52,230 nucleotides of DNA from Promethearchaeota archaeon (GCA_048938385.1 JBHLMG010000016.1:1-52230); one strand, 5' to 3'; shown: positions 31,852 to 52,230, numbered from the stretch's first letter. Notes: a model not told the origin generated them from the sequence alone. Made by a program: numbers and translations.

Positions 31852-31854
31852 GGA

Positions 31855-32466: not shown

Positions 32467-32588
32467 TGTCGTTACACCTATCACTGGAATCCTTCTAAGC
32501 CAAACTTATTATCTTTTCGACTTTCTCCGGCTATCCATCTTTTCATCGAGTGAAACCTATAACCTGTCGAGAGAGTAAACCCAAGAAT

Positions 32589-33431: not shown

Positions 33432-33664
33432 TAGATTTCACCTCTGTTGCGAAAAGACAACTACCTTGCACCTTCATAACTAGCTCATTTGGGCAACTAA
33501 TTTTAGCAGAACTCCTGGTTCTTAGAGGTTATATTATTTCTGCGCATCACAAGGGTTATAAGAATTCTAGAGTGTTGCTTGTTAATTAAGCTCATTAGCT
33601 TCTGGGTTCTCAACTGACACTCAAACCCATGTTCCGCTCAGAATGCCGTTGGGAGAAGTCCTAT

Positions 33665-35296: not shown

Positions 35297-35533
35297 AGCC
35301 GTGAAATGTGCCTTGGCATCGACTTGGTGGTTATTGCGAGTTGCCGCTAGATTCTAACGATGTTGTAGCGATTTGAACAATAAACGACACCCCCTGTCAA
35401 ACTGGTGCCTGTAAGCATCGAGGTTAACCGTAGCATCATACAAGATGAAAAAGCGAAAAACCCCTTTATTTGACTAAACTCAGCATAGTTCTTGAGAATT
35501 GGAAAGGGGTTGTTAAGTCGGTTATCTTAGAGG

Positions 35534-36088: not shown

Positions 36089-36233
36089 GGTAATTACAAC
36101 AGTTACTGAGTCGGATTCATATAACGCATTTATTTATATTTTATCTATAGTTATAGCCGTTTACTGCTAAAAAGGAGAACAGACCTAGAAAGCAATACCG
36201 CTGAAAGCTAAAAAACAAAACAGGATTTCACCA

Positions 36234-37568
36234 GTGATTTCAATGATTCAAGTAAATCTAATCCCCCACCCGCTCTTAGTAATCGGTTTGATCATCGTTT
36301 TAGCAGTGATAAGCGGGGAAGTTCAGCGTCGGTTGGGGATTCCACAAGTACTCGGTTTCATCATTATCGGGATAATATTAGGACCTGTTTTTTTCGGGTT
36401 AATTGATGAAACCCTCCTTACGCTTTCCCCAATCATCACTGCGATTGCGCTAGGTTTCATTGGATATAACATTGGAAACGAATTCAGAATTTCAACGGTT
36501 AAAAAAGAAGCCCGTAAACTCCTTCCAATCCTGGTAGCGGAGACCATCGGGACTTATTTCCTTGTATTTTTTGTTATTTTATTTTGGCTGCGTGATCCCT
36601 TACTAGCAATACTTTTAGGGAGTTTAGCTGCCGCGACGGCGCCTGCTGCCACAGCCGACATTATCTGGGAGTTCAAAAGCAAGGGACCTGTCACAGATTC
36701 GCTCATGTTTATTCTCATCATGGATGATGTTATCGCAATAATCCTAACCAGTATAGCCATCAGCGTTGTCGTATTGTTCCTCAATCCGCTGAGTGTCACT
36801 CTGTTTCAAATAATCGCCACCCCAGCCATCGATATTGGGGTTTCGCTTCTTATTGGTGCAGGATTTGGTTTTCTTCTCGCTCATTTTTTACAGAATGTGA
36901 AGGACCATGGTCGTTACATTCTGCTTCTGATTAGCGTCATTCTCTTAATCATTGGGATTGCAGAATTGTTGCAGGCAAGTTATCTACTTACATGCATGGT
37001 GTTTGGAATTGTTCTCAGCAATCGTGTTCCCAAAGAATCAATAGAATTAGGCAACGAAGCAGAAAAAATATTGAGCCCATTCATCCTCCTCTTCTTCGTA
37101 TTTTTTGGAGCAGGCATGATTGATCCCACGCTTTTCATCACTGGAGGCATCCTAGTGGTTACTACTGCGATTCTGTATGTGATTGCGCGCACTGTTGGCA
37201 AGTATTTTAGTACGCGGCTGGCAGCTAAAGCCAGTGAGAACCCACCTACTGTCGTCCGATATCTGGGATTGTGTTTATTTAGCCAAGCCGGTGTAGCTGT
37301 TGGATTAAGCGTCGTGATAGCAGACTACATGGCGCAATTAGGAGCCCCACAATATGCCACAATCATCGTTGGAGTGATTGGCCTCTCAACCTTAATCTTT
37401 CAACTCTTTGGACCATTAGCCGTTAAAACTGCCATCCATAGAGCAGGTGAAGTAAACAGCGAGAACAATCATGAAGTCCAAGAATCCTCTGAAACCGTTG
37501 ACACAAGAGCCAGACAAGAAGATCTCAGTTTTGATGAGAATACTGAACCCACTTCTAGGTCAGAATAG
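36234..37568 (+). CDS. Cation:proton antiporter (Na+/H+ exchanger family)
   Basis: IPQVLGFIIIGIILGP, AATAPAAT, MDD, FFVFFGA, ARTVGK, QAGVAVGL. Confidence 0.9.
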   Translation: MISMIQVNLIPHPLLVIGLIIVLAVISGEVQRRLGIPQVLGFIIIGIILGPVFFGLIDETLLTLSPIITAIALGFIGYNIGNEFRISTVKKEARKLLPILVAETIGTYFLVFFVILFWLRDPLLAILLGSLAAATAPAATADIIWEFKSKGPVTDSLMFILIMDDVIAIILTSIAISVVVLFLNPLSVTLFQIIATPAIDIGVSLLIGAGFGFLLAHFLQNVKDHGRYILLLISVILLIIGIAELLQASYLLTCMVFGIVLSNRVPKESIELGNEAEKILSPFILLFFVFFGAGMIDPTLFITGGILVVTTAILYVIARTVGKYFSTRLAAKASENPPTVVRYLGLCLFSQAGVAVGLSVVIADYMAQLGAPQYATIIVGVIGLSTLIFQLFGPLAVKTAIHRAGEVNSENNHEVQESSETVDTRARQEDLSFDENTEPTSRSE

Positions 37569-37704
37569 TTCAACAATGAACCTTCAACACCGATCACCCG
37601 CCGATGAGACTAACCGAAGCATTTAGCCTAAAGTGAATGGCAGGAAGCTTATCATTAACACCAGTACCTCATTTATAGGTTGGAATAGGAGAAGGTTCTA
37701 CTTA

Positions 37705-39237
37705 ATGGCCGTCTCCGAACCTCTTTCCTCTTCAACCTATGACGACCGGGTGCCTGTGAAGGCAAAACTAGGGTTTAGTGTAGCCAATACCTCGAATGTG
37801 CTCTTGTCGGGTTTGGTTCTAGGGAGTATTGATATTTTTTATCTCAAATTTTTTAGTTTGGACCCCCGACTCATCGCAATCTCTTGGATCATATTCATGG
37901 TATGGAACGCGGTCAATGATCCCTTAATTGGTATTATCCAAGATAAAACGAGATCCAAGCTTGGGCGACGGATTCCCTATTTACGCTATGGGGCGGTTTT
38001 GTATACACTCTCTTTTCTTTTGGTCTGGTTTCCTTTCATTTATAATTCCCAATTCGGTTATTCTTTGTTTGTCCAATGGTTTCCGGGCATCGACACTATC
38101 GATATGGGTCTGTTTTGGAACCATTTGATGGTGTTGTTTATTTTCGACACCTTGTTTAGCATGATTGGCTTGATTTGTAACATTCTTCCTGCGGAGATGG
38201 CTGTCACCGCACAAGAACGGACAAATGTTGTAGTCTTCAGTACGGTTGTGGGGATACCTGGCTCAATCCTTCCGATGATTCTTCCGATTATGCTGCTCAC
38301 TGGAGACAGCCCCAATAAAACTAGCTTTTTGATCGTGATGGTAGTAATCGCAATTCTTGCTGGACTATTACTGTATGGAGGAAGCTACTTCATCAAGGAA
38401 AATCGCTACGCGGTGATCGAAGAAACACTGGGCTTTAAAGAGAGCTTTATTGAAACTTTCAAGAACAAACCGTTTCTTGTCATGGAGGTCACCATCTTTT
38501 CCTTCGTGGTACTCCAAGAATCGGTGTTTAGCGGATTGGTTTACTTGATAGATTATGTTTTGATCATCAACGGTTGGATCTCAATCGTATCCATCGTCCC
38601 AGTCGTGATCGTGTTTGGTTGGGTGCTATGGAAAATATTTAGCAAGATCTCCATTCTTGGGCTCCGTAAGACCATGTTGAGGGCGTCTTACTTTGCGCTA
38701 ACCGGGTTTGCCCTTCTCTTGGTGATCGGGTGGTTCTGGGGCCCCAGAGTCTCCGTGGAGATCGTCGGAGTTGCGCTCGGGTTAATGTTCGTTGGATTAC
38801 TGACATTCGTGATGACCAACCAACCCTTGATAGGGGAAGCTATTGATTATGATGAGATACGCACCGGGAAACGGCGTGAAACTACTTATTCGGGAGTTAA
38901 TGCGTTAATTACTAAACCCGCGGTGTCGATTGCTCATTTTGTCACCTTATCGATTATGGTAGCATATGGCTATAATGCAAACCTCCCGGTGTCAGCCCAA
39001 CCCATATCTGTGTCATATGGGGTCTTCCTCGCGTTTACGGTTGTGCCCATATGTTTCCTCCTTGTTAGCATCCTCGCAATGACGAAGTTCCCTCTTCACG
39101 GTGAAAGGTGGAGAGAACAAAAACACCAGTTGCAGGAGATACACATTCGGAAGGAACGGGAGTACCTGGCTTATTTGGAAGCGGAGATGTCTAACAGCGG
39201 AAAGAATGACAACGAGGAAACCCATTCTGTTAGATAA
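37705..39237 (+). CDS. MFS transporter, glycoside-pentoside-hexuronide (MelB-like) family
   Basis: WNAVNDPLIGIIQDKTRSKLGRRIPY, ERT, IDYDEIRTGKRRE. Confidence 0.9.
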   Translation: MAVSEPLSSSTYDDRVPVKAKLGFSVANTSNVLLSGLVLGSIDIFYLKFFSLDPRLIAISWIIFMVWNAVNDPLIGIIQDKTRSKLGRRIPYLRYGAVLYTLSFLLVWFPFIYNSQFGYSLFVQWFPGIDTIDMGLFWNHLMVLFIFDTLFSMIGLICNILPAEMAVTAQERTNVVVFSTVVGIPGSILPMILPIMLLTGDSPNKTSFLIVMVVIAILAGLLLYGGSYFIKENRYAVIEETLGFKESFIETFKNKPFLVMEVTIFSFVVLQESVFSGLVYLIDYVLIINGWISIVSIVPVVIVFGWVLWKIFSKISILGLRKTMLRASYFALTGFALLLVIGWFWGPRVSVEIVGVALGLMFVGLLTFVMTNQPLIGEAIDYDEIRTGKRRETTYSGVNALITKPAVSIAHFVTLSIMVAYGYNANLPVSAQPISVSYGVFLAFTVVPICFLLVSILAMTKFPLHGERWREQKHQLQEIHIRKEREYLAYLEAEMSNSGKNDNEETHSVR

Positions 39238-39454
39238 AAGGATGCAAATTGTCATCACACCATTGAAGCCACCAAAGCTCGACAACAATAATGGCTATCC
39301 ACCAATTACTACTCAAAGGATACAGTAACAAGTTTCCATATTTGCAATGCAACTAAACGATAGGATTAAATCGCCTTCGGATTGAATTATAAATGCAATT
39401 AAGCATTCTCACTGAGCTAGGAAATTCAGGTTAAACCTTAAGGAGTTAAGAAGG

Positions 39455-39721
39455 ATGACTGCCAAGAAATCTTTTACAGCAAAGGAGGCGAAAGAGATAG
39501 GGGAGAAACTAGGCATTAAATGGGATAAGTTCGATATCGAGCAATTTAGAAAAGGAATGGATGTAGAGTTGGAGCATGGCCGCCGTGATCCGCGGACTAA
39601 TGTCACTGATGATGATCCAATTCTAACTGGAAAGATTGCATGGGCGCATCTAATTGAGTTTCCAGACTATTATGAAAGACTTGAAAAGCTTGAGGAAGAA
39701 GCAAAGGCGTATTGGGAATAG
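39455..39721 (+). CDS. DUF5661-family small protein
   Basis: QFRKGMDVELEHG, TNVTDDD, KIAWAHL.EFPDYY.RL. Confidence 0.82.
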   Translation: MTAKKSFTAKEAKEIGEKLGIKWDKFDIEQFRKGMDVELEHGRRDPRTNVTDDDPILTGKIAWAHLIEFPDYYERLEKLEEEAKAYWE

Positions 39722-39825
39722 TTTCGATTTTTCTTTGCAGATCCTCACTCAGAATTTTTAGGATAACCGCTAGGTCTAATGAAGAACTGTTGAGTGAAGA
39801 TAACCATCTTGACTTAACTACATCC

Positions 39826-39930
39826 AAGAAGGCGTTCTTGCGGGCGATACCAAATAAACTTTCTAAAGGGTTTGCGAGGAATAATTAGTAAAATCAACCT
39901 CCTTGTTTTGGTGTCATCTCACCAGAAAAA
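39826..39930 (+). repeat. Intergenic structured repeat, copy 1
   Basis: Starts AAGAAGGCGTTCTTGCGGGCGATA (24 nt identical to copies 4 and 5), ends GTCATCTCACCAGAAAAA. Confidence 0.85.
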
Positions 39931-40060
39931 CAGTTGTTTAACTGCATTCGCTGTCCATTCACATGACAGGATATACATAAAAGCGGATAACGCTCAACGG
40001 CATGGAAAAGATACAGGGAACAACCCACATCATTATACTAACAAGTTAGCCGGTGGAAAT

Positions 40061-40600
40061 GTGACTCTAGACACGGGGTTATTCATTGCAATAGCTGAAA
40101 TCGCGGGTGTCTTTGTCGGCTTCGGCGCTCTTATCAGCCTCATTCGCCCGGATGAAGTCGAGGCGACCCAACTCGCGCGGATCCGAGGCCTTGTCACAGT
40201 CGGGCTCACCATAATTATCGCAGCCCTCATACCAATCGCTATTAACCTCTACGGCGTCAGTGATCACCCCCTCTGGCTTATTTCGAGTCTCATCTTCTAT
40301 TCTCTCAACTGGTTCGTGATGATCTTGTCTTTTCGAGATCCCGTGAATAGAGAACTCATGAAGACCCAAACAAAGACCAGCCCCATTATATCAGTGCTTT
40401 TTTGGGCCTTGCTCGAGGTCCCACTTCATTTCCTATTGATTCTAACCATCCTGGGCTTGTTTCCACATCTAGACCTCGCCTTCTACACAACAGCCCTCTT
40501 GTTCTTCCTATTTGAAGCCGCATTTGCACTTGTGCAAGTCGTCCATTCACAAACAGAACCACAGAGTAAGCCTGCATCAAAACCTGATCTAAAGTTATGA
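40061..40600 (+). CDS. Hypothetical multi-pass membrane protein
   Basis: AEIAGVFVGFGALI N-terminal motif, about 5 TM helices; start moved to GTG 40061 because the upstream ORF extension overlaps repeat copy 1. Confidence 0.7.
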   Translation: MTLDTGLFIAIAEIAGVFVGFGALISLIRPDEVEATQLARIRGLVTVGLTIIIAALIPIAINLYGVSDHPLWLISSLIFYSLNWFVMILSFRDPVNRELMKTQTKTSPIISVLFWALLEVPLHFLLILTILGLFPHLDLAFYTTALLFFLFEAAFALVQVVHSQTEPQSKPASKPDLKL

Positions 40601-40873
40601 CTCTCAGTTGGCAACGATACTAGTATCATCTACTGGAGGAGCGCTCATTGGTGTGGAAACGAATGGTCGATACCACGCCCTAAAAACCACTCGTTAAGTC
40701 GTCTCCAATAGCGATTAGTCATGAAAAAGTGGACAAGCAAGCGTTTTTGCTTATATGCTTCCTTAATTTCGCCTTCAACGGCTCTTGCAGTTGTTATGTA
40801 AAAACCATAATTTTTTAGAATAGAAAGTCATTGAAGAGACCTTCAAAGACATTTAGTGTAGGAAAGGACCAGT

Positions 40874-43456
40874 ATGGAAATTCCCTTAAAACCGAAAACC
40901 AAGCGTGCGCCTCGAATCGTGAAAATTATTGCGGGCATCGATATTATCGTTATGGTGTTATTTGTTTTTCTTGGCATATATCGTTTCTTTGAAACGAATG
41001 CCGTTGTTGAAACTATTAATACGATTCAGATAACCAATCCTACATTATATGCGCTATTTGTGGATTATTTGGCCAGTATTAGACTAACCATCCCAATGTT
41101 TGTAAATGGTCTTTATGCCTTATCGGTCATAATTATTGCCGTTTCGTTTGTGGGTATGATACTGGCATATGGAACTGCAACCAAGAAACGCTGGGCTATT
41201 CCTGTGGGGGTGGGAGTATCCATACTTGCGATTATTGGAGGAATAATCAGCTATACATTTCACTATCTAACACCATTTGAAGCCGTTGGTCCAGCTCTCG
41301 TTTTACTTGATGCCTTAAGCTGGTTCTTTGCAATCCTAATGTTTAATGTCTTGTTCGTGGGTGCTTTCCTTATCTGGCAACTCGATGAACAACCCTACCA
41401 AACAATTCAGGTTGCTCGCTATATCCTCACTTGGAACTTGAACGCCATATGCCTATTAGTCACAGCTTTGCTCTATCGTGGAATTATAATAGAAGGTCTC
41501 TTTACGAGTGGAATACTCACTGCATTGGGAACTAGTTTCATAATCGTCGCTCTAATCGCTCTGATTAATATTCTCATCCGCCCCATTTTTACTAAAATCG
41601 CAGCTCTGATAGCACGATGGTGGATGGGCTTTGCAGTATCCTTTGTTATAATGTTCATTATCAATGGTTTCATAATATGGGTTCTAGCTCTTTTTATGCC
41701 TGGTTTCTTTGTTATCAATATCTTTGCAGCCCTTCTTGCAGGCCTCATTCTCTCGGCTCTTAACGCGATTGTAGTCAATGTCGTAGGGTTAGACGATGAT
41801 AGTACTTTCTTCAATCAATACATAGCAAAACAAATCAAGAAAGAAGTTGAAGCAGAAGACATCCCACAAACCCCAGGTATTATTGCCTTAGAAATAGATG
41901 GACTTAGTTACCCTGTAATACAGGAAGCACTCAAACGCGAATACATGCCCACTCTCCAACACTTAATCGACCGAGGTAGCCATCAATTAACGGGTTATAA
42001 TTGCGGTATTCCCTCTATGACATCGTCCTGTCAAGCGGGTATTATGTATGGAAATAACCATGACATCCCTGCATTCCGTTGGTTTGTTAAAGATGAGGAT
42101 CGTATGTTGACATCAAATAGACATTCAGACGCGCGTTTCATTGATAAACGCGCATCCGATGGTCAGGGAATTCTTCGCAATGGTGGGTCGAGTGTGAGCA
42201 ACCTTACCAGCGGAGATGCTACCTACTCCTTCTTCACTATGTCAACACTAACTGACATGGACGCAGAAGCAGGTCGACGTCGTAGCAAAGACCTCTACTA
42301 CTATCTCCTAAATCCCTGGGCTATGAACCGAAGCATCATCTATACTATCTGGGATCTATTCGTTGAAATTGGTCAAATAATCAAACAAACCATTACTCGC
42401 CGGAAACCTCGAATGAATCGCTTCCACAAATTCTACCCTGGAACACGTGCTGCTACAAATATTTTCATGCGAGACATTGCCACATCTATGGTTATCCAAA
42501 ATATCGCTCGTGGTGTACCGGGAGTCTATACCACATATTTAGGATACGATGAAATTGCCCATCATTCAGGTCCAATGAGCACTGATGCTCTCAAGGCGCT
42601 AAGAGGACTGGATAAACAAATCCGCCGAGTACTCCATGCTATCCAACATATTGCCCCACGACCTTACAATCTTTTTGTGCTCTCTGATCATGGTCAATCT
42701 GTGGGTTGGACCTTTAAACAACGCTATAATAAATCCATTAAGGACTTGATCGCAGACTTCCTGGAAGGAAAACTCTCTGTTGGCGAAATCGAGTCTATTG
42801 ACGCTCATGTAGGTTATGTTGGTGGGCTCATCGATGACTTAAATGCAGGTCAAACTGAAATAGAAGGAAAAACAGAGAAAAGGGCGCTGAGTAGTTTCTA
42901 TCGTTACAAAGATGAGAAAGGGCGAGTGGATACACAAGAAGTTTCAACAGACGATGTCATTGTGTGTGCATCAGGAAATCTAGCACAAATCTACTTCAAA
43001 ACCCAGAAAGGGCGATTAACATTACAGGACTTTGAACAGCAATTTCCAGGATTCATAACTAAATTAGTTGCTCATGAAGGTGTAGGTTTTGCCATTGTTA
43101 CGGATGCAACACGAGGCCCCATCATCTTTGGCAAAGAAGGCGCTGTTGAACTGCGTACTGGAAAAATTGACGGAAAAAACCCCCTTGCCACTTATGGAAC
43201 CCCGGAGGTCCTTATCAAACAGCTGCTGAGGCTTGCTGAATTTCCCAATAACGGAGACATTACGCTGATCAGTCCAGTCTATTCTGATAACTCAGTAGCA
43301 GCCTATGAGGAATTAATCGGCAACCATGGCGGTGTGGGTGGGGATCAAACCCATGCAATCCTCATCCATCCAGTGAACATCAAGGTTGATGGTAACAGCA
43401 TCACGAACTCCGAACAGATCTACCCCATTCTGAATAAAGCCCGTTCCAAGAAATAG
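40874..43456 (+). CDS. Membrane protein fusing a 4-TM phage-holin-family (YvlD/DUF360-like) domain to an alkaline-phosphatase-superfamily phosphodiesterase
   Basis: ALINILIRP...INGF..W holin_4-like segment; EIDGL, PSMTSSCQAGI, YDEIAHH, SDHGQ, NHGG metal and nucleophile motifs. Confidence 0.82.
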   Translation: MEIPLKPKTKRAPRIVKIIAGIDIIVMVLFVFLGIYRFFETNAVVETINTIQITNPTLYALFVDYLASIRLTIPMFVNGLYALSVIIIAVSFVGMILAYGTATKKRWAIPVGVGVSILAIIGGIISYTFHYLTPFEAVGPALVLLDALSWFFAILMFNVLFVGAFLIWQLDEQPYQTIQVARYILTWNLNAICLLVTALLYRGIIIEGLFTSGILTALGTSFIIVALIALINILIRPIFTKIAALIARWWMGFAVSFVIMFIINGFIIWVLALFMPGFFVINIFAALLAGLILSALNAIVVNVVGLDDDSTFFNQYIAKQIKKEVEAEDIPQTPGIIALEIDGLSYPVIQEALKREYMPTLQHLIDRGSHQLTGYNCGIPSMTSSCQAGIMYGNNHDIPAFRWFVKDEDRMLTSNRHSDARFIDKRASDGQGILRNGGSSVSNLTSGDATYSFFTMSTLTDMDAEAGRRRSKDLYYYLLNPWAMNRSIIYTIWDLFVEIGQIIKQTITRRKPRMNRFHKFYPGTRAATNIFMRDIATSMVIQNIARGVPGVYTTYLGYDEIAHHSGPMSTDALKALRGLDKQIRRVLHAIQHIAPRPYNLFVLSDHGQSVGWTFKQRYNKSIKDLIADFLEGKLSVGEIESIDAHVGYVGGLIDDLNAGQTEIEGKTEKRALSSFYRYKDEKGRVDTQEVSTDDVIVCASGNLAQIYFKTQKGRLTLQDFEQQFPGFITKLVAHEGVGFAIVTDATRGPIIFGKEGAVELRTGKIDGKNPLATYGTPEVLIKQLLRLAEFPNNGDITLISPVYSDNSVAAYEELIGNHGGVGGDQTHAILIHPVNIKVDGNSITNSEQIYPILNKARSKK

Positions 43457-43595
43457 TATAATCTACTAAAGTTGGGAAATGGACATAACAGACAAGAAAC
43501 ACTAATTCTTAGTTATGCGAAATGTCGAAGACTTCACAAACCTAATAAAACTCTTGTAAGGTTTTTTGTGGTGTTATTTTTCTACTTATAAAACC

Positions 43596-43642
43596 AAAAA
43601 AGGGTAAAAAAGAAAAAAGAAATGGTGGTGCATACGCACCAC
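43596..43642 (-). terminator. Hairpin plus T-tract terminator candidate for the DUF308 gene
   Basis: GTGGTGC-ATAC-GCACCAC perfect stem at 43625-43642 with a long A-rich run on the + strand (T-rich on -) immediately to its left. Confidence 0.5.
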
Positions 43643-43693
43643 TTTCTTCGTTTATACTATTCGGATCGATCGCTTGGCCAGTTATTTATCTGT

Positions 43694-44242
43694 TTATTGA
43701 TGACCAGCGATTCCTTTGATGAGGGCATTAAATCCAAACATCATGAAGCCAAGGGCCACATAGATGAGAATAATAAGGTACCCCAGTCCAGGGAAAGCGA
43801 CGACTGCAAAGGATAAGATAATCCCAATTATACCAATGATGATAAGCCATCCACGATACCAACCTGGAAGCTCCGTTATCATCGCTCCAAAAGCAATGGA
43901 ATTGAAGCCATTCATGAGAAGGCCAATGACTAATAACCAGATCAACAGGAGTTCACCAAAAGCAGGGAGGGCAATTACAGGGATGGTTAACACCAGCATT
44001 AGAATTCCAAAGACTATTGCAAGGATCCTAAGCCACGAAGGTAGTTCTTTAGATACAAGTCCTCCGATTAGATTACTAAGGCCCAAGATCAGAAGAATAA
44101 CTCCGAGAAAGGCAATTAAGATGAGGAAGGTTAGGGTCTGCACCCAATCGAACCAAATCACGGCAAAAGCGACGCTGATGGCGATGAGGCCAACGATGAT
44201 GTTGAGAAAACGTAACCAAGTAGGGAGTGTTGTTTCGCTCAT
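43694..44242 (-). CDS. HdeD/DUF308-family membrane protein
   Basis: Three repeats of LP-x-W-x-R followed by paired TM helices. Confidence 0.78.
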   Translation of the reverse strand: MSETTLPTWLRFLNIIVGLIAISVAFAVIWFDWVQTLTFLILIAFLGVILLILGLSNLIGGLVSKELPSWLRILAIVFGILMLVLTIPVIALPAFGELLLIWLLVIGLLMNGFNSIAFGAMITELPGWYRGWLIIIGIIGIILSFAVVAFPGLGYLIILIYVALGFMMFGFNALIKGIAGHQ

Positions 44243-44451
44243 AGGAATGCACTGAGCGAGTCAACGCCAAAACTTCTTTAAACATTTATGGCTTTTACCA
44301 AATCTGTTTTGTACAATATGAATTGGCTATGTGCTGATTAAAAGAAGTTCAACTAAGAAACAATTGTTTGGCTTGTTTTTTGATGGATTAAGTATTGTAA
44401 ATACTTAAAGCTTATAACAAATATGAGCAGAGAGGTCAAAACCAATTCTCT

Positions 44452-44820
44452 TTGGTGAAATGGAAAATGGTAGTCGGACTTATTGGCACGGCCTTAGTCT
44501 TGATCGTGAATTGGATCGTTGTATCTTTTGTCATTATGCTTGCCGGTAAACTCGTCGCTGGTATGGAAGCAACATTCGTAAAATCACTCTTGGTCAGTTT
44601 AGTCGCATCAATCATTGGGACGATAGCCTATTATGTTATAGAAATGTTCTTCCCGATGCTTGGATGGCTTTCAGGAATCATCGTCTTTCTCCTTTATCTA
44701 GCAGTTATCAAATATTACTTCCAGACTGGATGGATCGGCGCCTTACTGGTGGCCATCATAGCAATTATCATATGGGTAGTTCTCGCTTATGTGATGGCGG
44801 CCTTCTTCCCCGGCCTTTAG
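44452..44820 (+). CDS. Small 4-TM hypothetical membrane protein
   Basis: Hydrophobic; IKYYFQTGWIGALLVAIIA motif common in small archaeal membrane proteins. Confidence 0.7.
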   Translation: MVKWKMVVGLIGTALVLIVNWIVVSFVIMLAGKLVAGMEATFVKSLLVSLVASIIGTIAYYVIEMFFPMLGWLSGIIVFLLYLAVIKYYFQTGWIGALLVAIIAIIIWVVLAYVMAAFFPGL

Positions 44821-44838
44821 GCACCAACACAAAAAAAT

Positions 44839-44872
44839 CGGAGCCTTTTTTAGCTCCGTCTTCTCCTTTTTC
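44839..44872 (+). terminator. Hairpin plus pyrimidine tract downstream of the 44452-44820 gene
   Basis: CGGAGC...GCTCCG stem (44839-44858) preceded by A7 and followed by a T-rich tract. Confidence 0.45.
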
Positions 44873-45224
44873 ATTGGATAGCACTGAGAAGCCAAGAGAA
44901 TTGAAAAGTAACCGTTGAATAGATATTCATCCACATGGTGTTTTGTAGGTGTCATCAAATCTGGTGAGACCAGTATTCAGAATTACCGTGGAATGGTTGT
45001 TCATTTGAGCATTGAGTAGTGAATGGAAAATTCCTCAAGGAACATTCTGAAGTTAAACAAGAACAGAAGAAGAAAATGAAGTGAAAATGCCAAAGCCAAA
45101 AGATGTTGATTCTTACACCTCCTTTTTTAAGGCTGAGTATTTGTAAACCCAGTCTTTATAGAATCATTCTGTCGTTTCTTGAGAAATAGTATTTGAGCTT
45201 CGCATCTTCTGAGGAGTAAGTACT

Positions 45225-46292
45225 ATGAAAATGAGTGAACGTCCTCATGGAGTGAAAATCCTTGTTGTGATTTGGTCACTGAATGCAATTTTTAATCTAG
45301 GGATTGCTTTCTTTCGCGTTTTAACTGGAATTGGAATGATGGAAGGAATTTACCCATCTGACCCAAGCCTTCCGAATTTCATTGAGACCATTATTAACAC
45401 ACTTAGGGTTCTAGGCATCTCAGAAAACGCTATAGTCATCGTAGATAGCGTAAAGGGCCTCTTAGTAGGGATCGAGGGCAGCTTCTACATAATTTCCGGG
45501 GTCATATATTTAGCCCTAGCAACTATCTATGCTTACATCAGTATCAATATTTGGTATATGAACCGCCCAGCCATCTGGAAAGCTATTCTCATTAACATTT
45601 TAGAAATCATCTTTTTCATCAGTGTCTTTCAAACCATACCCAACCTCATCATTCAATTCCTGTGCATACTATCAATTGGGGTAATTATCGTTATGAGCGG
45701 TTATCTCATCTTGAGACGAAATCTCTTCATTAATCGAAGAAAAGTCCAGGAAGAAGAACTCTTGGAAGGTGAAACAGTTCCTAATCAACGACCTATGATT
45801 TTTGGCATAATCGGGGGGGTAATTCTAATCCTTGTCCAGCGTAGTGGACGAATACCCATTGTAACCTGGCTGCCACTCCTTCTTGGTCTGGTTTTTGTTC
45901 CAGAAATGACTCCTGAATTAATCACCTTGCTGATATTCCTAGACATTCTCGCATGGTGTGGTGGCTTCATCGTCATTGCGGGTGTGGTGCTCCTCTGGAG
46001 GGAGAATTACAAGGGAGCAAAATTCCTAATGGGAATAGGTTCAGGATTTGGAATTGTTGGTCTCTTAACATGGTTTATCATTGATTATGTCTTCAGCGGG
46101 ATTTACCCTATCCAGTACACAACCATCCAATATGTTGAATTTCTTGGACTTTTACTCGTTCTTTTAGCTCGTGTAACTATTCGCGCTCCCAAGCAGTGGA
46201 AGAGAATCCTCGAACATCGGGCAAAGGAAGAAGCCGCCAAAGAGCGGTGGAAGTCCCGTTGGAGAAGGTTTACAAGTTGGCTTAGGAAGTAG
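45225..46292 (+). CDS. Hypothetical multi-pass membrane protein
   Basis: ERPHGVKIL N-terminus, about 8 TM helices in two blocks, basic C-terminal tail. Confidence 0.7.
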   Translation: MKMSERPHGVKILVVIWSLNAIFNLGIAFFRVLTGIGMMEGIYPSDPSLPNFIETIINTLRVLGISENAIVIVDSVKGLLVGIEGSFYIISGVIYLALATIYAYISINIWYMNRPAIWKAILINILEIIFFISVFQTIPNLIIQFLCILSIGVIIVMSGYLILRRNLFINRRKVQEEELLEGETVPNQRPMIFGIIGGVILILVQRSGRIPIVTWLPLLLGLVFVPEMTPELITLLIFLDILAWCGGFIVIAGVVLLWRENYKGAKFLMGIGSGFGIVGLLTWFIIDYVFSGIYPIQYTTIQYVEFLGLLLVLLARVTIRAPKQWKRILEHRAKEEAAKERWKSRWRRFTSWLRK

Positions 46293-46353
46293 CTATCTGC
46301 AGAATATTAGCCTGCAAAATTTGCTCTCGGCTAGTGCACGCCTGCAAAGACGA

Positions 46354-46450
46354 AAGAAGGCTTTTCTGAGGGCGATTACCGGATAATCTTTTCAGAGGTT
46401 TTTCCGAGCGATGACTGGAAAAGTCAATCTCCGTCTTATGCTATCATCTG
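46354..46450 (+). repeat. Intergenic structured repeat, copy 2 (diverged)
   Basis: AAGAAGGCTTTTCTGAGGGCGATTACC...TTTCAGAGGTTTTTCCGAGCGATGACTGGAAAAGTCAATCTCC...TCATC aligns collinearly with the other copies. Confidence 0.8.
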
Positions 46451-46470
46451 TAGCGAGTAGCTGCTTTTCT

Positions 46471-47796
46471 CTAGCTTTGGTGGGTGCGCGGTATGAACAG
46501 GGCCACGATTACTGCAAGTGTAATGCCAGCGACGAAGACATATCCTGCTGTGATGGCAATAGCTGCTATGATGGCCGCACCAACCGCTGCGCCTAGCTCT
46601 TGTATGCTCATGTACATACCTGAGGCTTCACCGACATTGGTCGTGTCAACGGAGGACAAGGCAATATTCTGCACATAGGGTAGGATTAAGCCTGCACCAA
46701 CACCAATCAGCAGAAGAATGCCTATGATTGCAAAAATTGGCAGCCCTGGAACAATGAACAAAGCACTCAGACCCACGATGATGAACACGGTTCCGATGAT
46801 AATGAGATATTTTGGTTGGAAGCGTTCGCCAAGATTACCGGCAACGAAGGCGACAAAGAAGACTGGCAGGGTATAGGCCAGCGTTATCAGGGCAGTGTCG
46901 AAGGCAGGAAATCCCAGTCCTTGGAGAATCTGTGGGAACAAGTATATTGTCCCTCCTGCAGCGAAGGTGTACACAAAAACATAGATGACCATAATTGTGA
47001 ATACCCGATTGCGAAAGATTTGTACCCGAAAAATCGGATTACGGTCGGCTTTGTCGAGGCGAGTGGACCACCACCAAAATACGCCGAAGAAGAGGGCGCC
47101 TACAACGATGAGGATACTGTATAGCAGATTCACTGAGAGGAGGGCAAGCCCTAGTATGAGGGGAGCAAAGGCGAGTATGATGAAGAGTGTGCCAATCCAA
47201 TCAATGGTTCCTGGATACTTTTTGGTTTCTGTGAATGTGCGTAATAGAAGCATTATGATGACGGCGAGGAGAATCTGATAAGCAAACATCAGCCGCCAAT
47301 CAATGAATGAAGCGAAAGTACCCATCAGGAGTGGGGCCAAGGCGGATGTGAGTCCAATGAAGCCAGCATAAATCCCGAAGGCAATGTTTCGTTGTTTTCC
47401 TTCATACTTCGCGATGAGTAGGGATCCGGTGGCCGGAAAAGCCAAGATAAACCCCAGGGGCATGATTAGGGCAAAGCCTACTAAAAACATGAGACTGTTC
47501 AAGCTCAGCCCAGCTACAATGTTGCCAACGATGAAAATGATTAGCCCTATGAGGAGGGCTCGCCTGAGTCCGTTCATGTAGCCGATTTTCCCACCAGTTA
47601 TTATCAAGCTGGCATTCACAAGTCCCGCGATTGCGAGCGCCACGGATACAAGAAGCGGATCACCGAAGACCGCCGTAATTGCAGTTGTGGCTAATGTTAA
47701 CATGGAGACATTACCAATGAGAAGAAACGCACCGAGGGCGGCAGTAATTGCTGGCATCCAACTACTTTGATTGGAATTTTGTTCATTCATTTCCAA
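46471..47796 (-). CDS. MFS transporter, DHA2/drug-resistance-like
   Basis: GGKIG...G.RR, APLLMG, DWR..F, IDWIG, GEASG; about 14 TM segments. Confidence 0.85.
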   Translation of the reverse strand: MEMNEQNSNQSSWMPAITAALGAFLLIGNVSMLTLATTAITAVFGDPLLVSVALAIAGLVNASLIITGGKIGYMNGLRRALLIGLIIFIVGNIVAGLSLNSLMFLVGFALIMPLGFILAFPATGSLLIAKYEGKQRNIAFGIYAGFIGLTSALAPLLMGTFASFIDWRLMFAYQILLAVIIMLLLRTFTETKKYPGTIDWIGTLFIILAFAPLILGLALLSVNLLYSILIVVGALFFGVFWWWSTRLDKADRNPIFRVQIFRNRVFTIMVIYVFVYTFAAGGTIYLFPQILQGLGFPAFDTALITLAYTLPVFFVAFVAGNLGERFQPKYLIIIGTVFIIVGLSALFIVPGLPIFAIIGILLLIGVGAGLILPYVQNIALSSVDTTNVGEASGMYMSIQELGAAVGAAIIAAIAITAGYVFVAGITLAVIVALFIPRTHQS

Positions 47797-47947
47797 AAAC
47801 CTTTCAAGTCATATCGAGCAGTGGCACACCAGGGAATGTTGAATAAAAAAAATGTAAGGATTTACTAAACGGACTATAGGATGTTCGTGCGTTGGCGCCC
47901 TCAACCCGCAACCATTTCTGAACAACCAAGAATTCCCGCAAAGACCA

Positions 47948-48050
47948 AAGAGGGTGTTTCTGGGGGCGATGACCACATAAGGTTTTCAGGGATTTTTTTG
48001 AGTGATGATTGGAAAAGTAGACTTCTTTTATTGTCATCGCACCTGTAAAG
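47948..48050 (+). repeat. Intergenic structured repeat, copy 3 (diverged)
   Basis: AAGAGGGTGTTTCTGGGGGCGATGACC...GAGTGATGATTGGAAAAGTAG...GTCATCGCACCTGTAAAG. Confidence 0.82.
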
Positions 48051-48235
48051 CACTTGTTTCGTTGCATATATCCAAGATTCGTTTCATCAATGTTCCCCCG
48101 TTATGACTACATTACCCTTTCTACGCCTTTTCTCAAATTAGCGATGAACTTCGACAACTTGTTCAAATGAGTAAGCCTTTGTTATTTCACTACTCTACTC
48201 CAATTCGCTCTGCTTGACATAGTCATCGGATCTTC

Positions 48236-49699
48236 TTAGTTTCCACCCCTAAAATCAGGGAACTGGTTTCCAGTGAATAATCGTGGAGCTACTTCCGAAT
48301 ATCCTGCCGCGATTCGGTGTGCTTTGAGATCATCATAGGACTGGGCCACGATTTGAAGACCGGTTGGCATACCCTCTGAGGACCGCCCTGTGGGGGCATT
48401 GATGACTGGATACCAGTTGACAATATTAAACAGGGGCGTTAAGATCCAGCCAGCAAGCGAATTAACCTCGACGCCATTAATGACCGTCGTGTCCTGGGTG
48501 TAATCGAGATCCGCTGGGATGTGACTGGTTGCTAGCGTGGGCATGACCATGGCATCATATCCTTTGAGGAAGATTTGGTTTTGGAGATGGTTGTTGGCGG
48601 CTTTGATGTTGTTTTCGTATTGGAGCGCTTCTTTCGCACCGTACCCGCCTGCTGCCGCTTTCTCTACAACATCCCGACCATAAGTCGTCATTTGAGCCTT
48701 TTGAGAAGCGAGCCTCCCGAGCGTAGCCCCTTGTGGCCCATACAGTGCCGCTTCAATCAGGGCAAATCTTAGATCATCTGCAGTAACACCAAGGTCGAGG
48801 TCCACCTCATCAACAACGGCACCAGCCTGCCGTAACAGATCGACAGCTTTGGCAGTATTTTTCGCAGTGTCAGTATCAATCTGCGCCCAACTTTGATCCG
48901 GGCTAAAGGCGATACGCACCCCTTTGAGGTCGGAATATTCTAACGGGAGTTCCAACTTCGGGCGAATGGTTGAAGGACTATAAGGGTGCGGACCAGAAAT
49001 GGTGTTCTGCATATGGATGATATCAGGCAGCGTCCGAGCCATCGGACCATTGGAAGCGATGACTAACAAGGTGTCCGTAGTAGGCACACGCCCATAAGGG
49101 GGCTTGTATCCGTAAAGCCCATTGAACGCACAGGGAATGCGAATCGACCCACCCATGTCAGAACCCGTTGCAAGGGTGCAAAATCCCGCCGCTAATGCCG
49201 CTCCAGACCCACCAGATGATCCGCCAACAGCGTATTTGAGGTTCCAAGGGTTCCGAGTAACACCCCATAGATCTGTCCAAGTGACCCCAGAAAAGCAAAA
49301 CTCAGGTACTGTGGTTTGGATGTGTAGGATCGCCCCAGCTTCTAGTAATTTATCCGTAACCGGATCGGTTGCTTCAAGTTTGGCATCTTTATACAGCTTC
49401 GAGCCTTGGGTGATTATCCAACCTGCCATTCCGTGTTCGTCTTTCATTCCAACTGTAATTCCTTCGAGGGGTCGCGGATTCCCTTGCTTATACCGCTTTT
49501 CAGATTCTTTTGCAGCTTTTCGGGCGGAATCAAAGTGGGTGTAGGTGATAGCGTTAACTTTCTCATTCTCTGCTTCGATGCGAGATATTTGGGCTTCCAG
49601 AACATCAACAGGCGAAATCTCCTGAACCTTGAAAAGCTCGAGAAGCCGGTAAGCAGGGGCGTAAACAAGTTCCAAATCAGAATTACCCATAGATATCAC
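48236..49699 (-). CDS. Amidase-signature family hydrolase
   Basis: PLEGITVGMKD (Lys), TRNPWN, GGSSGGSGAALAAG, GSDMGGSIRIP (Ser-cisSer-Lys triad). Confidence 0.92.
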   Translation of the reverse strand: MISMGNSDLELVYAPAYRLLELFKVQEISPVDVLEAQISRIEAENEKVNAITYTHFDSARKAAKESEKRYKQGNPRPLEGITVGMKDEHGMAGWIITQGSKLYKDAKLEATDPVTDKLLEAGAILHIQTTVPEFCFSGVTWTDLWGVTRNPWNLKYAVGGSSGGSGAALAAGFCTLATGSDMGGSIRIPCAFNGLYGYKPPYGRVPTTDTLLVIASNGPMARTLPDIIHMQNTISGPHPYSPSTIRPKLELPLEYSDLKGVRIAFSPDQSWAQIDTDTAKNTAKAVDLLRQAGAVVDEVDLDLGVTADDLRFALIEAALYGPQGATLGRLASQKAQMTTYGRDVVEKAAAGGYGAKEALQYENNIKAANNHLQNQIFLKGYDAMVMPTLATSHIPADLDYTQDTTVINGVEVNSLAGWILTPLFNIVNWYPVINAPTGRSSEGMPTGLQIVAQSYDDLKAHRIAAGYSEVAPRLFTGNQFPDFRGGN

Positions 49700-49818
49700 C
49701 AGTAGGAATTTCTTAGGAAAATGTCAGCAATTAAATATCTACTGGTATTTCGAATGACTTGAATTAGGATAAACCTATAGATTGATATCTCCTCAAAAAA
49801 CTTGATGCCGAGGAGTCA

Positions 49819-50382
49819 ATGGCGTTGAGTAAACCCTGCGAAATCACATTAGAACTTAAAGAGATAAATCACCTTTTCGCAGCTCCTGTGCTAGATCCAT
49901 TCTCAGAGTATTATAAACCGTACACAGCTACTGCAGGTATCGAATTCATCTATCATGAACTTCGAGGTCATGTAAATCGGAAAGAAGTTGTTACAACGAT
50001 CATTCTTCCTGAAGACCAAGTGAGAACCCGGTTAGAAGAGGATACTAAGGAAGCTGTACAAAGGTATACTAAGAGCAAACTCCGTGAGGTGTCTCAAGAT
50101 ATACGTGCATCTTGGTATAAGGGAATTCGGCTATTGATATTGGCCCTCATTGCATTTTTCCTATCACAGATCGGGTTCCTGACTATCAAAGAAGTAATTT
50201 ATCCTCTAACAGCAAATCCTTTCATTCGAATTCTTAGTGAAGGGGTTCTGGTTTTTGGATGGGTTATGCTCTGGGTGCCACTAGACCTGCTGGTATTTGA
50301 AATGTGGGGACACAGACTCGAACGAACAATATTTCGAAATATGGCCAACATGGTAATTGTGATAAGAAGCGTAACACCTTAA
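49819..50382 (+). other.  Confidence 0.
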
Positions 50383-50459
50383 CAATCCGCATTCCTGTGG
50401 AATGCAAATTGGGATTTGATGATTTGAAGCGACTGCGTTTTATGGAGTTGACCATGTTT

Positions 50460-50570
50460 AAGAAGGCGTTCTTGCGGGCGATAATGTATTTAATTTTTTC
50501 CGGAGTTTTCTTGACAGATAATGGGAAAAAAGTCAGCTGCAGCCTTACCCTGTCATCGCTCGAGAAAAGT
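50460..50570 (+). repeat. Intergenic structured repeat, copy 4 (similarity to copy 5 extends over about 50409-50621)
   Basis: GACCATGTTTAAGAAGGCGTTCTTGCGGGCGATAA...ATTTAATTTTT..CGGAGTTTTCT...GATAATGGGAAAA...GTCATCGC. Confidence 0.88.
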
Positions 50571-50756
50571 CTGCCAAAGCCGAAAGTCGAAGATTAAATT
50601 AATACTGCCCAACCAAGGGTGCCCCAAGATAAAGTGTGTCACCTTTGCCGTGTTAGCTTATCTACCACCGGACTAAAGACGACAATGGTATCCGTTCTTG
50701 TTGAATACATTTTTCAGTAAATTCCTTGAGTGATTAGAGATAAAGAGAGGTAGCCC

Positions 50757-51620
50757 ATGAAAATTACAATCATTGGAGTTCCGTTTAATGGAGATGGAAC
50801 GCCTCCTGAAGTTGAAAACCCAGCCCAATCCCTTAGAGACGAAGGGGTGATTTCCTTACTTCAGAACAAAGGACATCACCTAACTGATTTTGGCGATTTG
50901 CACATTCCTATGTTTTCAAATAAGAAAGATCTAATTACAAATGTTCTGAATTTTGATGCGTGGCGAGAGGTATCTCTGAGTTTATCCAGAACCCTAGGTG
51001 GTGAATTAGCTCAAGATAGTTTCCCGATTGTACTGGGCGGAGACTGTGCCATTCTAATGGGGATTTTTGATGCGTTCAATGTAATGAATCAACCTTTGAA
51101 CCTCTTCTTTCTCGACGGACACGCTGATTTTCACACTCTTGATACCTCAACAACTGGTGAACCTGCTGACTTGGAATTAGCCGCCTTGACAGGGCATTTG
51201 TCTAAGGAAATCGTCTACATGACGGGACGAGGTCCGTTACTGCATGAGAAAAATGTCATTGCATACGGAATAGGTGAACTCGACTCTATTGAAAGGTCGA
51301 ATATCATGTTTGTTGATCGCAGATCAATCTTAAAAGATGGGATTGAATCCACCTTTCGTCGAAGCCTTGGATCATTCCAGAATCCGGATTTGCCACTTTG
51401 GCTCCATTTTGATGTTGATGTCTTGGACAAAGAAATCATGCCAGCTATACAGTATCCTGTTGAGGGCGGTCTCTCATACAACGAAATCCAAGAATTGCTT
51501 ACTCTCATAAAGGAAAGAAACCAACTAATCGGAATGAGTATTACTTGTTACCATCCAAAGCTGGATTATGATAAAAAAGGAGTCAAAACGCTTCTTTTAC
51601 TTTTCAAGGAAATTTTCTAA
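50757..51620 (+). CDS. Arginase/ureohydrolase-family protein
   Basis: LGGDC, DGHADF, HFDVDVLD, P..GGLS. Confidence 0.88.
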   Translation: MKITIIGVPFNGDGTPPEVENPAQSLRDEGVISLLQNKGHHLTDFGDLHIPMFSNKKDLITNVLNFDAWREVSLSLSRTLGGELAQDSFPIVLGGDCAILMGIFDAFNVMNQPLNLFFLDGHADFHTLDTSTTGEPADLELAALTGHLSKEIVYMTGRGPLLHEKNVIAYGIGELDSIERSNIMFVDRRSILKDGIESTFRRSLGSFQNPDLPLWLHFDVDVLDKEIMPAIQYPVEGGLSYNEIQELLTLIKERNQLIGMSITCYHPKLDYDKKGVKTLLLLFKEIF

Positions 51621-51744
51621 GACAAGAATTTACGAAAAATTTACAAAAATGATGGAATGTGTCTTTAATAGCCTTACTAATAATCTTGACTTTTGGGATT
51701 TAATGGAGAGAAAGTCTGGAAGCTTTGTGGAGTAGACCATATTT

Positions 51745-51852
51745 AAGAAGGCGTTCTTGCGGGCGATAACCGATTTAATTTTTCACGGAGTTTTCTCGAG
51801 TGATAACGGGAAAAGTTAGTCCTCTTCTTATGCGGTTATCGCACCAGTAAAG
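51745..51852 (+). repeat. Intergenic structured repeat, copy 5 (similarity to copy 4 extends over about 51693-51896)
   Basis: GACCATATTTAAGAAGGCGTTCTTGCGGGCGATAACCG...CGGTTATCGCACCAGTAAAG; perfect 10-bp inverted repeat GCGATAACCG/CGGTTATCGC. Confidence 0.88.
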
Positions 51853-51993
51853 TTGCCAAGGCATAACACCGAAGATACATAATCTACCGAAGGGTGTAAC
51901 ACTCCTCAAGAGAAGCAAGTCATTAATTTAATCAATGGATGAATTTTAAACCAAAGGTGTTATACTACATTTGGTTCTTGTGAGAAGAAGAAG

Positions 51994-52230
51994 ATGGGAA
52001 TAAAGTTCAGGTTCATGAAAGCTTTCGTCATGAGATTCGGTATACCAAGAATCAAACGAATGATAGCAAAGCAGAGATCGCTACTTGAGAGACCTGAGAT
52101 TCTTCATCCGACACCAGACTCTCCGACAAGGTTCGAAATACCTCTGGAGATGCTGAATCTCCTTCAAGAGCGAGATGATATTGAAATGAGGCACTTGTTT
52201 CCCATTAGACGCCTTCTTTCGATTATGAAG
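51994..52230 (+). CDS. 5' part of a gene running off the window (MGIKFRFMKAFVMRFG...), product unknown
   Basis: 79 open codons from ATG 51994 to the window edge. Confidence 0.6.
   Translation, partial: MGIKFRFMKAFVMRFGIPRIKRMIAKQRSLLERPEILHPTPDSPTRFEIPLEMLNLLQERDDIEMRHLFPIRRLLSIMK

Follow-up and report, generated by a model that had tools for sequence, protein, structure and literature searches.

How Asgard archaea, the nearest relatives of eukaryotes so far known, exchange genes is poorly understood. The locus described here, an island of accessory genes parted by direct repeats within the ESCRT gene cluster of an Asgard archaeon, invites comparison with several recombination systems. In integrons, attC sites carry R'' (RYYYAAC) and R' (GTTRRRY) boxes at their ends; the crossover falls at the 3' end of the site, and the whole site travels with the upstream gene. 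A dif site is built of two inverted arms of ~11 bp around a 6-bp spacer. Integrase-less elements forming IMEX (integrative mobile elements exploiting Xer) arrays stack in tandem at dif by means of the host Xer recombinase, and in the pdif modules of Acinetobacter plasmids 28-bp Xer sites stand in inverted pairs around accessory genes, with no recombinase nearby. Neisseria minimal mobile elements are alternative cassettes that occupy one slot and are swapped via homologous conserved flanks. As for Asgard genomes, integrons and CALINs (clusters of attC sites lacking integron integrases) have been reported in ~8% of them (PMC9668308), in a main text that does not mention Hermodarchaeota.

The DNA under study, hereafter the window, is the complete contig C9 (52,230 nucleotides (nt); GCA_048938385.1 JBHLMG010000016.1:1-52230) of a 2.48-Mb assembly representing a genome that is 90% complete. 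Its host is an Asgard archaeon of the Hermodarchaeota, genus Hermodarchaeum. We found no description of the island or of its repeat in the literature on Asgard integrons, ESCRT clusters, mobile elements and Hermodarchaeota: the terms ESCRT, vps4 and integron do not occur in the accessible part of the Hermodarchaeota description (PMC8163825), and neither island nor repeat is described in the accessible parts of two papers on Asgard mobile elements (PMC8813620, PMC11529989).

A preliminary description of the window had pointed to five co-oriented intergenic repeats as possible recombination sites of a gene-capture system. Overall, this interpretation is partly supported, and homologous recombination is a serious alternative to it. 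We are confident that the repeats are junctions at which gene modules are exchanged. More tentatively, and somewhat short of an even chance, we regard them as att-like junction sites of a genus-specific gene-cassette island located in the promoter-proximal region of vps4.

The repeat array and exchange at its core

Genes for a Vps23-core protein, Snf7, Vps4, ESCRT-II and EAP30 identify the surroundings as an Asgard ESCRT gene cluster. In the window, positions 28854-32484 hold the Vps23-core gene and two Snf7 genes (Pfam); on C30, a second contig of the same assembly that takes up where the window stops, positions 13-2662 (L001) encode Vps4, an ESCRT-II/Vps25-like protein and an EAP30-family protein. 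A repeat-bearing island of ~25 kb separates the ESCRT-III (Snf7) genes from vps4 across the two contigs. The gene whose start closes C9 (family F41) has its C-terminal end at the end of C30; thus, the array runs from C9 into C30 and terminates at vps4. Eight copies lie in the island: five in the window, and one full plus two half copies on C30. The array first outlined within the window therefore stands with its five members and is incomplete in extent.

The five co-oriented copies are real, and they begin where they had been placed. An exact 24-mer recurs on the plus strand at 39826, 50460 and 51745 (none expected in 100 shuffles), and the five regions align with a mean column identity of 70%. 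Within the window, an nhmmer profile of the five copies matches those places alone (E 6e-36 to 3e-42); over the 2.48-Mb assembly it adds one full copy (E 1.5e-22) and one partial copy on C30, and the covariance model R1 recovers the same six full copies. By both methods positions 1-39800 are repeat-free, in agreement with the earlier remark that the housekeeping half has none. All five copies lie on the plus strand: copy 1 at 39802-39947 (core from 39826; 106 bits; 5' flank atypical), copy 2 at 46307-46455 (core from 46354; 108.6 bits; type-A 5' arm), copy 3 at 47900-48068 (core from 47948; 116 bits; type-B 5' arm), copy 4 at 50411-50610 (core from 50460; 109.8 bits; type-C 5' arm) and copy 5 at 51695-51888 (core from 51745; 129.7 bits; type-C 5' arm). 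Copies 4 and 5 are 87% alike across 91 nt.

The unit is longer than the ~105 bp originally assigned to it, since conservation among copies in relatives reaches from ~60 nt before the starts then given to as much as ~140 nt after them. It measures ~150-200 nt and has three parts: a 5' arm of ~60 nt, the core AAGAAGGCGTT and a 3' arm of ~130 nt. The 5' arm comes in three families, of which types A and B hold two direct CCYGCAA motifs ~33 nt apart and type C terminates in TTTAAG. Just past the core, between two conserved blocks, lies a 6-8-nt spacer that is hypervariable between copies; the two blocks are not mutual inverted repeats (best dyad 63% over 8 nt), and the one that follows the spacer is GCGATAAC. 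The 3' arm extends to ~+140 and occurs in several subtypes, set by eye because single-linkage clustering lumped most of them into one cluster; the motif GYGATRAC recurs in it once direct and once inverted. Short motifs recur at matching positions in separate arm families, and copies share an exact core stretch of 24-28 nt. Adjacent copies have identical spacers in ~4 of 17 pairs, too few to judge whether identical overlaps are needed. A short in-frame peptide (KKAFLRAI) was considered and rejected, its start codon not being conserved, its stops varying and the spacer of L034_3495 containing an in-frame TAA.

Evidence for exchange comes from the flanks. Among 496 pairs of copies compared, six share the left flank (0.89-0.99) and not the right; in the five of these that were displayed, the two copies are almost identical along the 5' arm and as far as core +10 to +16, beyond which identity falls. 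Another six share the right flank (0.81-0.99) and not the left, with agreement starting at about -22 to +28. Such one-sided sharing, breaking in the core, shows that the 5' arm belongs with the upstream module and the 3' arm with the downstream module. One 3'-arm subtype is paired with 5' arms of types C, A, A, A and B, and another with B, C-like, A, A and C. The arm types assort freely, which places the exchange point in the core. It is on this linkage of arms to modules and on the breakpoints in the core that the earlier view of the repeats as junctions for the exchange of unrelated modules is borne out.

Several copies serve as examples. In what follows, genomes and loci carry our working handles, G000 being the window genome. 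The 3' arm and right flank of copy 4 match the copies upstream of arginase in G012 (0.99) and G008 (0.93), and in these three species the same arginase-upstream 3' arm is joined to 5' arms C (window), A (G012) and B (G008). Downstream of arginase there is the same type-C arm, joined to two different 3' arms: the left flank and 5' arm of copy 5 are identical to those of L034_3495 in G008 up to core +13 and differ beyond. L033_12925 of G012, which follows F40, equals the left half of copy 2 (93%, to +15) joined to the right half of copy 3 (85%), and the MFS module is absent at this site. Thus, the MFS module is a one-module difference accompanied by duplication of the site. Direct hybrid sites border each inserted unit, and the terminal site is joined to native sequence. 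Species differ in gene content, with synteny breakpoints inside the repeat core, a kind of difference for which the preliminary description had proposed to look. In a contig from another sample, position 51757 (within the copy-5 core) is joined to position 48011 (within the copy-3 3' arm); contigs of two other samples cross copies 2-3 and 3-4 unaltered.

Modules have passed between species. The arginase genes are 95.6% identical in nucleotides between G000 and G012, 96.6% between G000 and G008 and 94.6% between G008 and G012; three amidase pairs reach 92.3-95.4% (window vs G012 95.4%, vs G003 93.3%), and high values are also found for F41 (G000-G003, 95.4%), F37 (G000-G013, 93.3%), the zinc alcohol dehydrogenase (G012-G013, 91%), a GNAT (G010-G014, 92.7%) and F40 (G000-G012, 90.7%). 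In the same genome pairs vps4, snf7, vps25 and EAP30 show 71-86%; between G000 and G012 the values are 75.6% for vps4, ~76% for the snf7 genes and 71% for vps25. Module identity far above that of the ESCRT genes points to recent movement of repeat-bounded modules between species, with the remainder probably inherited vertically. Exceptions to high identity are F38 (79%) and F39 (75%, both G000-G012), although copies 1 and 2 enclose both of them in a repeat-bounded module. In one run (X2), summed contig depth is 32-59 over 50634-52230 against ~12-16 elsewhere, and variant contigs occur there too; co-occurring relatives may share the arginase and F41 modules, contig depth being a weak measure.

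The genes listed as repeat-free on the Snf7 side (F17, F36, F21 and F10) are 66-82% identical in various pairs, which is the level of core genes, and in several arrays the Snf7-proximal copies score low on R1 (L033 51.7, L034 41.7 and L038 42.6 bits). Taken together, these observations fit a growth of the island from the vps4 side, with older material displaced and decaying. Decay within the island is exemplified by a remnant of a zinc alcohol dehydrogenase gene at 48090-48185.

As far as found, the element is confined to Hermodarchaeum and to the Snf7-vps4 locus. R1 detects it in 10 of the 14 other species-level genomes of the genus and in none of four genomes of the order's sole sister genus; 22 further Asgard genomes give a single weak match (E 0.0045). 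An exact-pattern scan of one genome per species (185,579 species) returned eight loci, all in genomes of the genus, and seven metagenome contigs bearing the pattern represent the same chromosomal locus. The four genomes of the genus with no R1 match are G005, G007, G009 and G011, and their arrays were probably not assembled: the contigs of G007, G009 and G011 end 64-434 nt upstream of vps4, and in G005 vps4 begins ~500 nt from the contig start. These four and G004, whose contig ends 800 nt upstream, all retain a half copy upstream of vps4. The contigs of G004, G007, G009 and G011 (L047-L050) break inside or beside this half repeat. The repeats seemingly break metagenome-assembled genomes beside vps4, four of six further genomes of the genus stopping 64-800 nt upstream of it.

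The 28 strong copies (E <= 1e-9) from 11 genomes lie on a single strand within each contig. A synteny map places the repeats between the Snf7 pair and vps4 in every contig and, read by eye, shows them pointing in the direction of vps4 and away from Snf7 in 7/7 contigs. Clustering in co-oriented arrays, which the preliminary description wished to see checked, holds at one locus for every genome of the genus in which the repeats are assembled, and the genome-wide scatter in random orientation that it named as refuting was not seen. The Snf7-vps4 region is contiguous in G014 (7.4 kb) and G006 (7.9 kb), and independent metagenome contigs reproduce both arrays. Families F3/F4 border the island in the window and in L033, L034, L036, L038, L040 and L044. 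Upstream of Snf7, six other genomes of the genus have a conserved stretch of ~90 nt ending in CGCAAAA, beyond which the sequences are unrelated; the window itself, at 32485-32600, has a different sequence upstream of Snf7.

The sister genus shows what the locus may have looked like before. The island splits the ESCRT cluster in Hermodarchaeum, whereas the cluster of the sister genus is contiguous: in 3/3 contigs Snf7 and vps4 are divergent neighbours with 113-226 nt between them, and this gap holds AAAGAAGGCGTTTT ~60 nt before vps4. Upstream of vps4, the core AAAGAAGGCGTT(T/C)T is found in 13/13 genomes of the genus and in 3/3 island-free sister-genus contigs. In all 13 genomes of the genus assembled there, the vps4-side copy is a half site (5' arm and core), located ~18 nt upstream of vps4 according to the open reading frame (ORF) calls, and repeat similarity ceases right after the core. 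In two sister-genus contigs (L051 and L053), a direct repeat of ~22 nt brackets a ~60-nt core segment just before the vps4 start codon; the third (L052) has only the downstream copy of it.

Enzymes, folding and competing explanations

The own genome contains exactly one tyrosine recombinase (a single PF00589 match), at L046 1432-2376 on the minus strand of contig C26. Its scores exceed the cut-offs of XerA_Arch (269.7 against 220 bits) and PRK00283 (287 against 279 bits); on the integron-integrase model TIGR02249 it reaches 154.4 bits in two separate stretches, against a cut-off of 265. Judged by these models, it is a Xer-type tyrosine recombinase, and it is the only site-specific recombinase found in the own genome. 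The protein (313-315 aa) is present in the own genome and in 11 of the 14 genomes of the genus at 131-175 bits, with a twelfth at 115 bits, and in none of the four sister-genus genomes. The homologues within the genus (L056-L067) are 71-76% identical in protein sequence. The genus protein scores slightly above XerA on bacterial XerC/XerD models.

We propose the following scenario. The ancestral gap between Snf7 and vps4 would already have held a short core, AAGAAGGCGTT, ~60 nt upstream of vps4. Modules carrying a ~200-nt site that shares this core (5' arm, core, 6-8-nt spacer, 3' arm) would have entered there, most simply as circles, one crossover in the core sufficing for each serial, Campbell-type entry. 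Every entry would duplicate the site, giving an array of core and 3' arm, module, 5' arm and core, repeated, which would end as a half site (5' arm and core) joined to the native vps4 leader. Looping out between neighbouring direct sites would free a module bearing one hybrid site, able to enter any copy again, in its own species or in a different one. Slightly likelier than not in this scenario, the crossover would be made by a recombinase acting in trans, the sole candidate seen being the genus-wide Xer-like tyrosine recombinase, and in that case proteins would bind at the arm motifs (CCYGCAAA repeated, GYGATRAC repeated). The single locus, the common orientation, the terminal half site, the native core of the sister genus, the linkage of arms to modules, the free assortment of arm types and the passage of modules between species are observed, whereas the circular intermediates, the enzyme and any role of the arm motifs are what we infer. 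The most specific form of the proposal is rather unlikely in all its parts: a capture platform of Asgard archaea analogous to integrons, in which circular integrase-less cassettes with a ~200-nt att site depend on a chromosomally encoded recombinase in trans, be it Xer-like or unrecognised, to enter the promoter region of vps4.

A number of results weigh against a dedicated enzyme. Recombinase, transposase and integrase families were found in none of the island ORFs scanned, namely 15 of 17 in the window part, five of six on C30 and 52 from relatives; the unscanned ones among the 113 listed fall in BLAST families having a scanned member. The window itself thus encodes no recombinase in its 15 scanned island ORFs, as had been noted from the outset, and the recombinase or HUH transposase sought at an array end was seen at none in 14 related genomes. 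Serine recombinases, Y1/HUH transposases and Cas1 were not found in the own genome, which is 90% complete. Xer-related genes are patchy in Asgard archaea (48/121 genomes), the link between Xer and the repeats consists of one contrast of genus with genus, and the Xer-like genes may simply resolve chromosome dimers. The core has no dyad of the kind used by tyrosine recombinases: a scan of positions -70 to +120 that allowed arms of 7-11 nt around spacers of 3-11 nt peaks at 0.63, the best inverted arms agree at 63% over 8 nt, and the 11-6-11 architecture of a dif-like site does not appear. No circular module junction was met in Logan contigs, which are assemblies and not reads (two joints, neither of them a module circle), and no copy of the site was found on extrachromosomal or viral DNA in the metagenome scan and a viral collection (zero exact pattern matches in IMG/VR). 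Copy 4 and L033_18372 reach 100% identity only from +66, with 81% between +13 and +66, a transition suggestive of a conversion tract or of another crossover. Finally, the breakpoints must map to the sole segment common to all arm types, so their position cannot separate site-specific from homologous exchange.

The same island could have arisen with no dedicated enzyme, the ~200-nt repeats serving as portable homology for general homologous recombination: modules would loop out, circles would re-insert, or segments of repeat, module and repeat would be swapped between related species. We consider this serious alternative somewhat doubtful as it stands, even though the missing recombinase in or beside any island, the missing dyad and the additional transition at +66 lean towards it. 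The unit is also long enough, with an exact 24-28-nt core that copies share; partial and decayed copies occur; and since the ESCRT genes are only 71-80% identical between species, the repeats offer the best homology available, while the rest of the genomes (~75% identical) would be too diverged to recombine. What leans the other way is that copies within one genome have been little homogenised, that at the first entry nothing but the short native core would have been common to the module and the region upstream of vps4, and that the arm families share placed motifs, with the hypervariable 6-8-nt spacer lying exactly at the exchange point, a combination which suggests recognition by a protein. 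We are inclined to neither side with any firmness: that exchange is site-specific rather than homologous is a tentative view, nearly but not quite evenly balanced.

A role of the repeats mainly in regulation, as copies of a vps4 promoter-proximal element with a leader or small RNA and with exchange incidental, seems improbable to us. The core is conserved upstream of vps4 in two genera, the 5' arms end A/T-rich, in TAAAG or TTTAAG right before the core, which we take as a candidate for an archaeal TATA-like box, and 22 of 34 first downstream genes run in the direction of the repeat; yet the other 12 are antisense to it, and the linkage of arms with modules and their transfer between species would be left unexplained. 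Elsewhere in the genome the core 11-mer has five exact occurrences, all within long ORFs, which leaves no wider regulon and led us to reject the core as a wider promoter motif. Rfam gives no repeat match at the gathering threshold (whole window) or at E <= 10 (39000-52230). The consensus fold of 28 copies has an energy of only -2.88 kcal/mol, its long-range pair 36-112 is unpaired in 20 of 28, and a trial structure shows four double-change pairs against 3.4 in shuffles. A structured non-coding RNA or riboswitch is accordingly not supported, neither a three-helix structure nor RNAalifold giving convincing covariation (6 and 28 copies), and nor is the repeated non-coding RNA offered earlier as an alternative. 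An extended inner helix was inspected by eye and dropped, as were the ideas of a C/D box, a terminator and a T-box, for which no conserved boxes were seen.

That the island is an archaeal integron fragment, an integrase-less attC cluster, is very improbable. Such clusters belong to the reported ~8% of Asgard genomes (PMC9668308, main text), and a co-oriented array of small accessory genes (GNATs, hydrolases, nitroreductase) is what one would look for. However, the only conserved inverted pair, GCGATAAC...GTCATCGC, reads GATAAC...GTCATC in most copies, the purine/pyrimidine pattern of the attC boxes fits neither side, and only 4 of the 28 aligned copies have GTT at the inverted motif; the lack of canonical attC boxes had been seen correctly at the start. 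As single-stranded DNA, six copies folded on both strands give z from -2.1 to +0.6, with copy 5 alone below -2, and with RNA parameters, similarly, copy 5 alone folds better than shuffles, so the sites can hardly be called foldable, as they once were. Moreover, ~95 nt separate the exchange point from the 3' inverted motif that lies downstream of it, and each site is therefore shared out between two adjoining modules; of the genes that come first after a repeat, about one in three runs against it; and the only tyrosine recombinase stays at 154 bits where 265 are needed for an integron integrase. With boxes and hairpin lacking, exchange in mid-unit and no IntI found, we rejected the attC site; the suggested likeness to attC or pdif sites fails on the same grounds and because all sites are direct. 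Least probable of all is a non-autonomous transposable element (a miniature inverted-repeat transposable element, MITE) or dispersed repeat. The sequence is short, non-coding and multi-copy; it occurs, however, at one locus and in one orientation in every genome, for which reason we rejected this alternative of the preliminary description, and the alignments show no evident terminal inverted repeats or target duplications. The Y1/HUH search gave no match, other transposase families not having been searched for.

Gene content of the island

The left anchor of the island is formed by the two Snf7/ESCRT-III genes at 31219-31851 and 31855-32484 (minus strand; Pfam Snf7 E 1e-16 and 2e-15), which are transcribed outward from it. 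Next comes the older part, 32485-39801, in which profile and covariance scans find zero repeats; it encodes an FkbM methyltransferase, a 555-aa ORF, the membrane protein F17, a Na/H exchanger, an MFS_2 transporter and a DUF5661 protein (Pfam). An ORF of 242 aa at 39872-40600 overlaps repeat copy 1 and encodes a multi-pass membrane protein of no Pfam family. Homologues from other species are 127-182 aa long and start near its residue 65, so that its true start is probably ~190 nt farther downstream.

Between copies 1 and 2, the module or modules at 39948-46306 hold F10, an 860-aa protein with phosphodiesterase/holin domains, F38 (minus strand), F39 and F40, and the order F38-F39-F40 is found again ahead of a repeat in G012 (L033). 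Among the recurrent island families, in which a local DNA-binding protein or recombinase was sought, F10, F17, F38, F39 and F40 are, judged by sequence, multi-pass membrane proteins. The contents of the next intervals are as originally described. Copy 2 stands between a plus-strand ORF (45225-46292) and a convergent, minus-strand MFS_1 transporter gene (46471-47796; Pfam), which makes up the one-gene module 46456-47899; copy 3 stands between two minus-strand genes, this one and an amidase. The amidase (48236-49699, minus strand; Pfam Amidase E 1e-77) and a 187-aa ORF (49819-50382, plus strand) form the module 48236-50382 between copies 3 and 4, and copies 4 and 5 enclose the one-gene module 50611-51694 with an arginase-family gene (50757-51620, plus strand; Pfam Arginase E 6e-29).

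The zinc alcohol dehydrogenase remnant mentioned above (48090-48185, minus strand) is a C-terminal fragment with an in-frame stop (tblastn 56% identity, E 1e-5); the query was the intact gene of G012 (L033 17344-18288), of which residues 278-309 of 314 aligned. The remnant trails the same 3'-arm type in several species, before differing genes. At 51994-52230 (plus strand) the window closes with the start of F41, a gene with 4Fe-4S domains cut at the contig end, the Fer4 domains being found in a full-length homologue (L035 429-1406). The cargo also comprises GNATs, alpha/beta hydrolases, nitroreductase, NUDIX, alkyl sulfatase, flavodoxin, P-type ATPase and parts of ABC transporters. Overall, the cargo consists of accessory metabolism and membrane proteins. 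A tRNA gene at 1565-1636 (Rfam RF00005, 61.6 bits) is distant from the island and unrelated to it.

Comparison with known systems

The island is a genus-wide platform on which accessory genes (amidase, arginase-family, hydrolase, acetyltransferase and transporter genes) are swapped between species otherwise only ~75% identical, at a site that is unlike attC and lies within the ESCRT cell-division gene cluster. Should a dedicated recombinase be at work, it would be a new cassette-capture system; should homologous recombination suffice, it would be a natural case of 'portable homology' keeping gene flow alive across deep divergence. If the platform does rely on a recombinase in trans, Hermodarchaeum species would trade genes of accessory metabolism across ~25% genome divergence.

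Like pdif modules, the island consists of accessory modules bounded by recombination sites with no recombinase nearby, yet its sites are all direct and ~200 nt long. It resembles IMEX in that the only site-specific recombinase found in the own genome is Xer-like; the core, however, has no dif-like 11-6-11 dyad, the site is a promoter region, and Xer is a candidate. Unlike Neisseria minimal mobile elements, with their flanking core genes, the island has a repeat that travels with every module and builds arrays of many modules.

With integron arrays and CALINs, as presented in the main text of PMC9668308, the island has much in common: co-oriented sites part small unrelated accessory genes on one chromosomal platform, sites of one lineage resemble each other more closely, and the cassettes carry no recombinase of their own. 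The sites of the island, in contrast, have neither attC hallmarks nor a hairpin, are ~200 nt long and are split in the middle, so that the ~130 nt past core +10 to +16 move together with the module that follows; IntI is missing, as is an attI next to an integrase, and modules often contain several genes in either orientation.

The tycheposon islands of Prochlorococcus, as far as the accessible part of the preprint describes them (bioRxiv 10.1101/2020.12.28.424599), share other traits: repeated integration at a fixed att site displaces older material inward, partial att copies lie scattered, and niche cargo is shared between strains. Their site, however, is a tRNA gene, and active elements carry a tyrosine recombinase and replication genes, whereas the island is sited upstream of vps4, has long conserved arms and shows no element-borne integrase in 14 genomes. 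What distinguishes our case from these last two is an Asgard host, a site in the promoter region of a cell-division gene, a long tripartite site split in the middle and the absence of any element-borne integrase. Overall, the integron cassette array is the closest analogue of the island in outcome, and repeated att-site integration of the tycheposon type is its closest analogue in logic.

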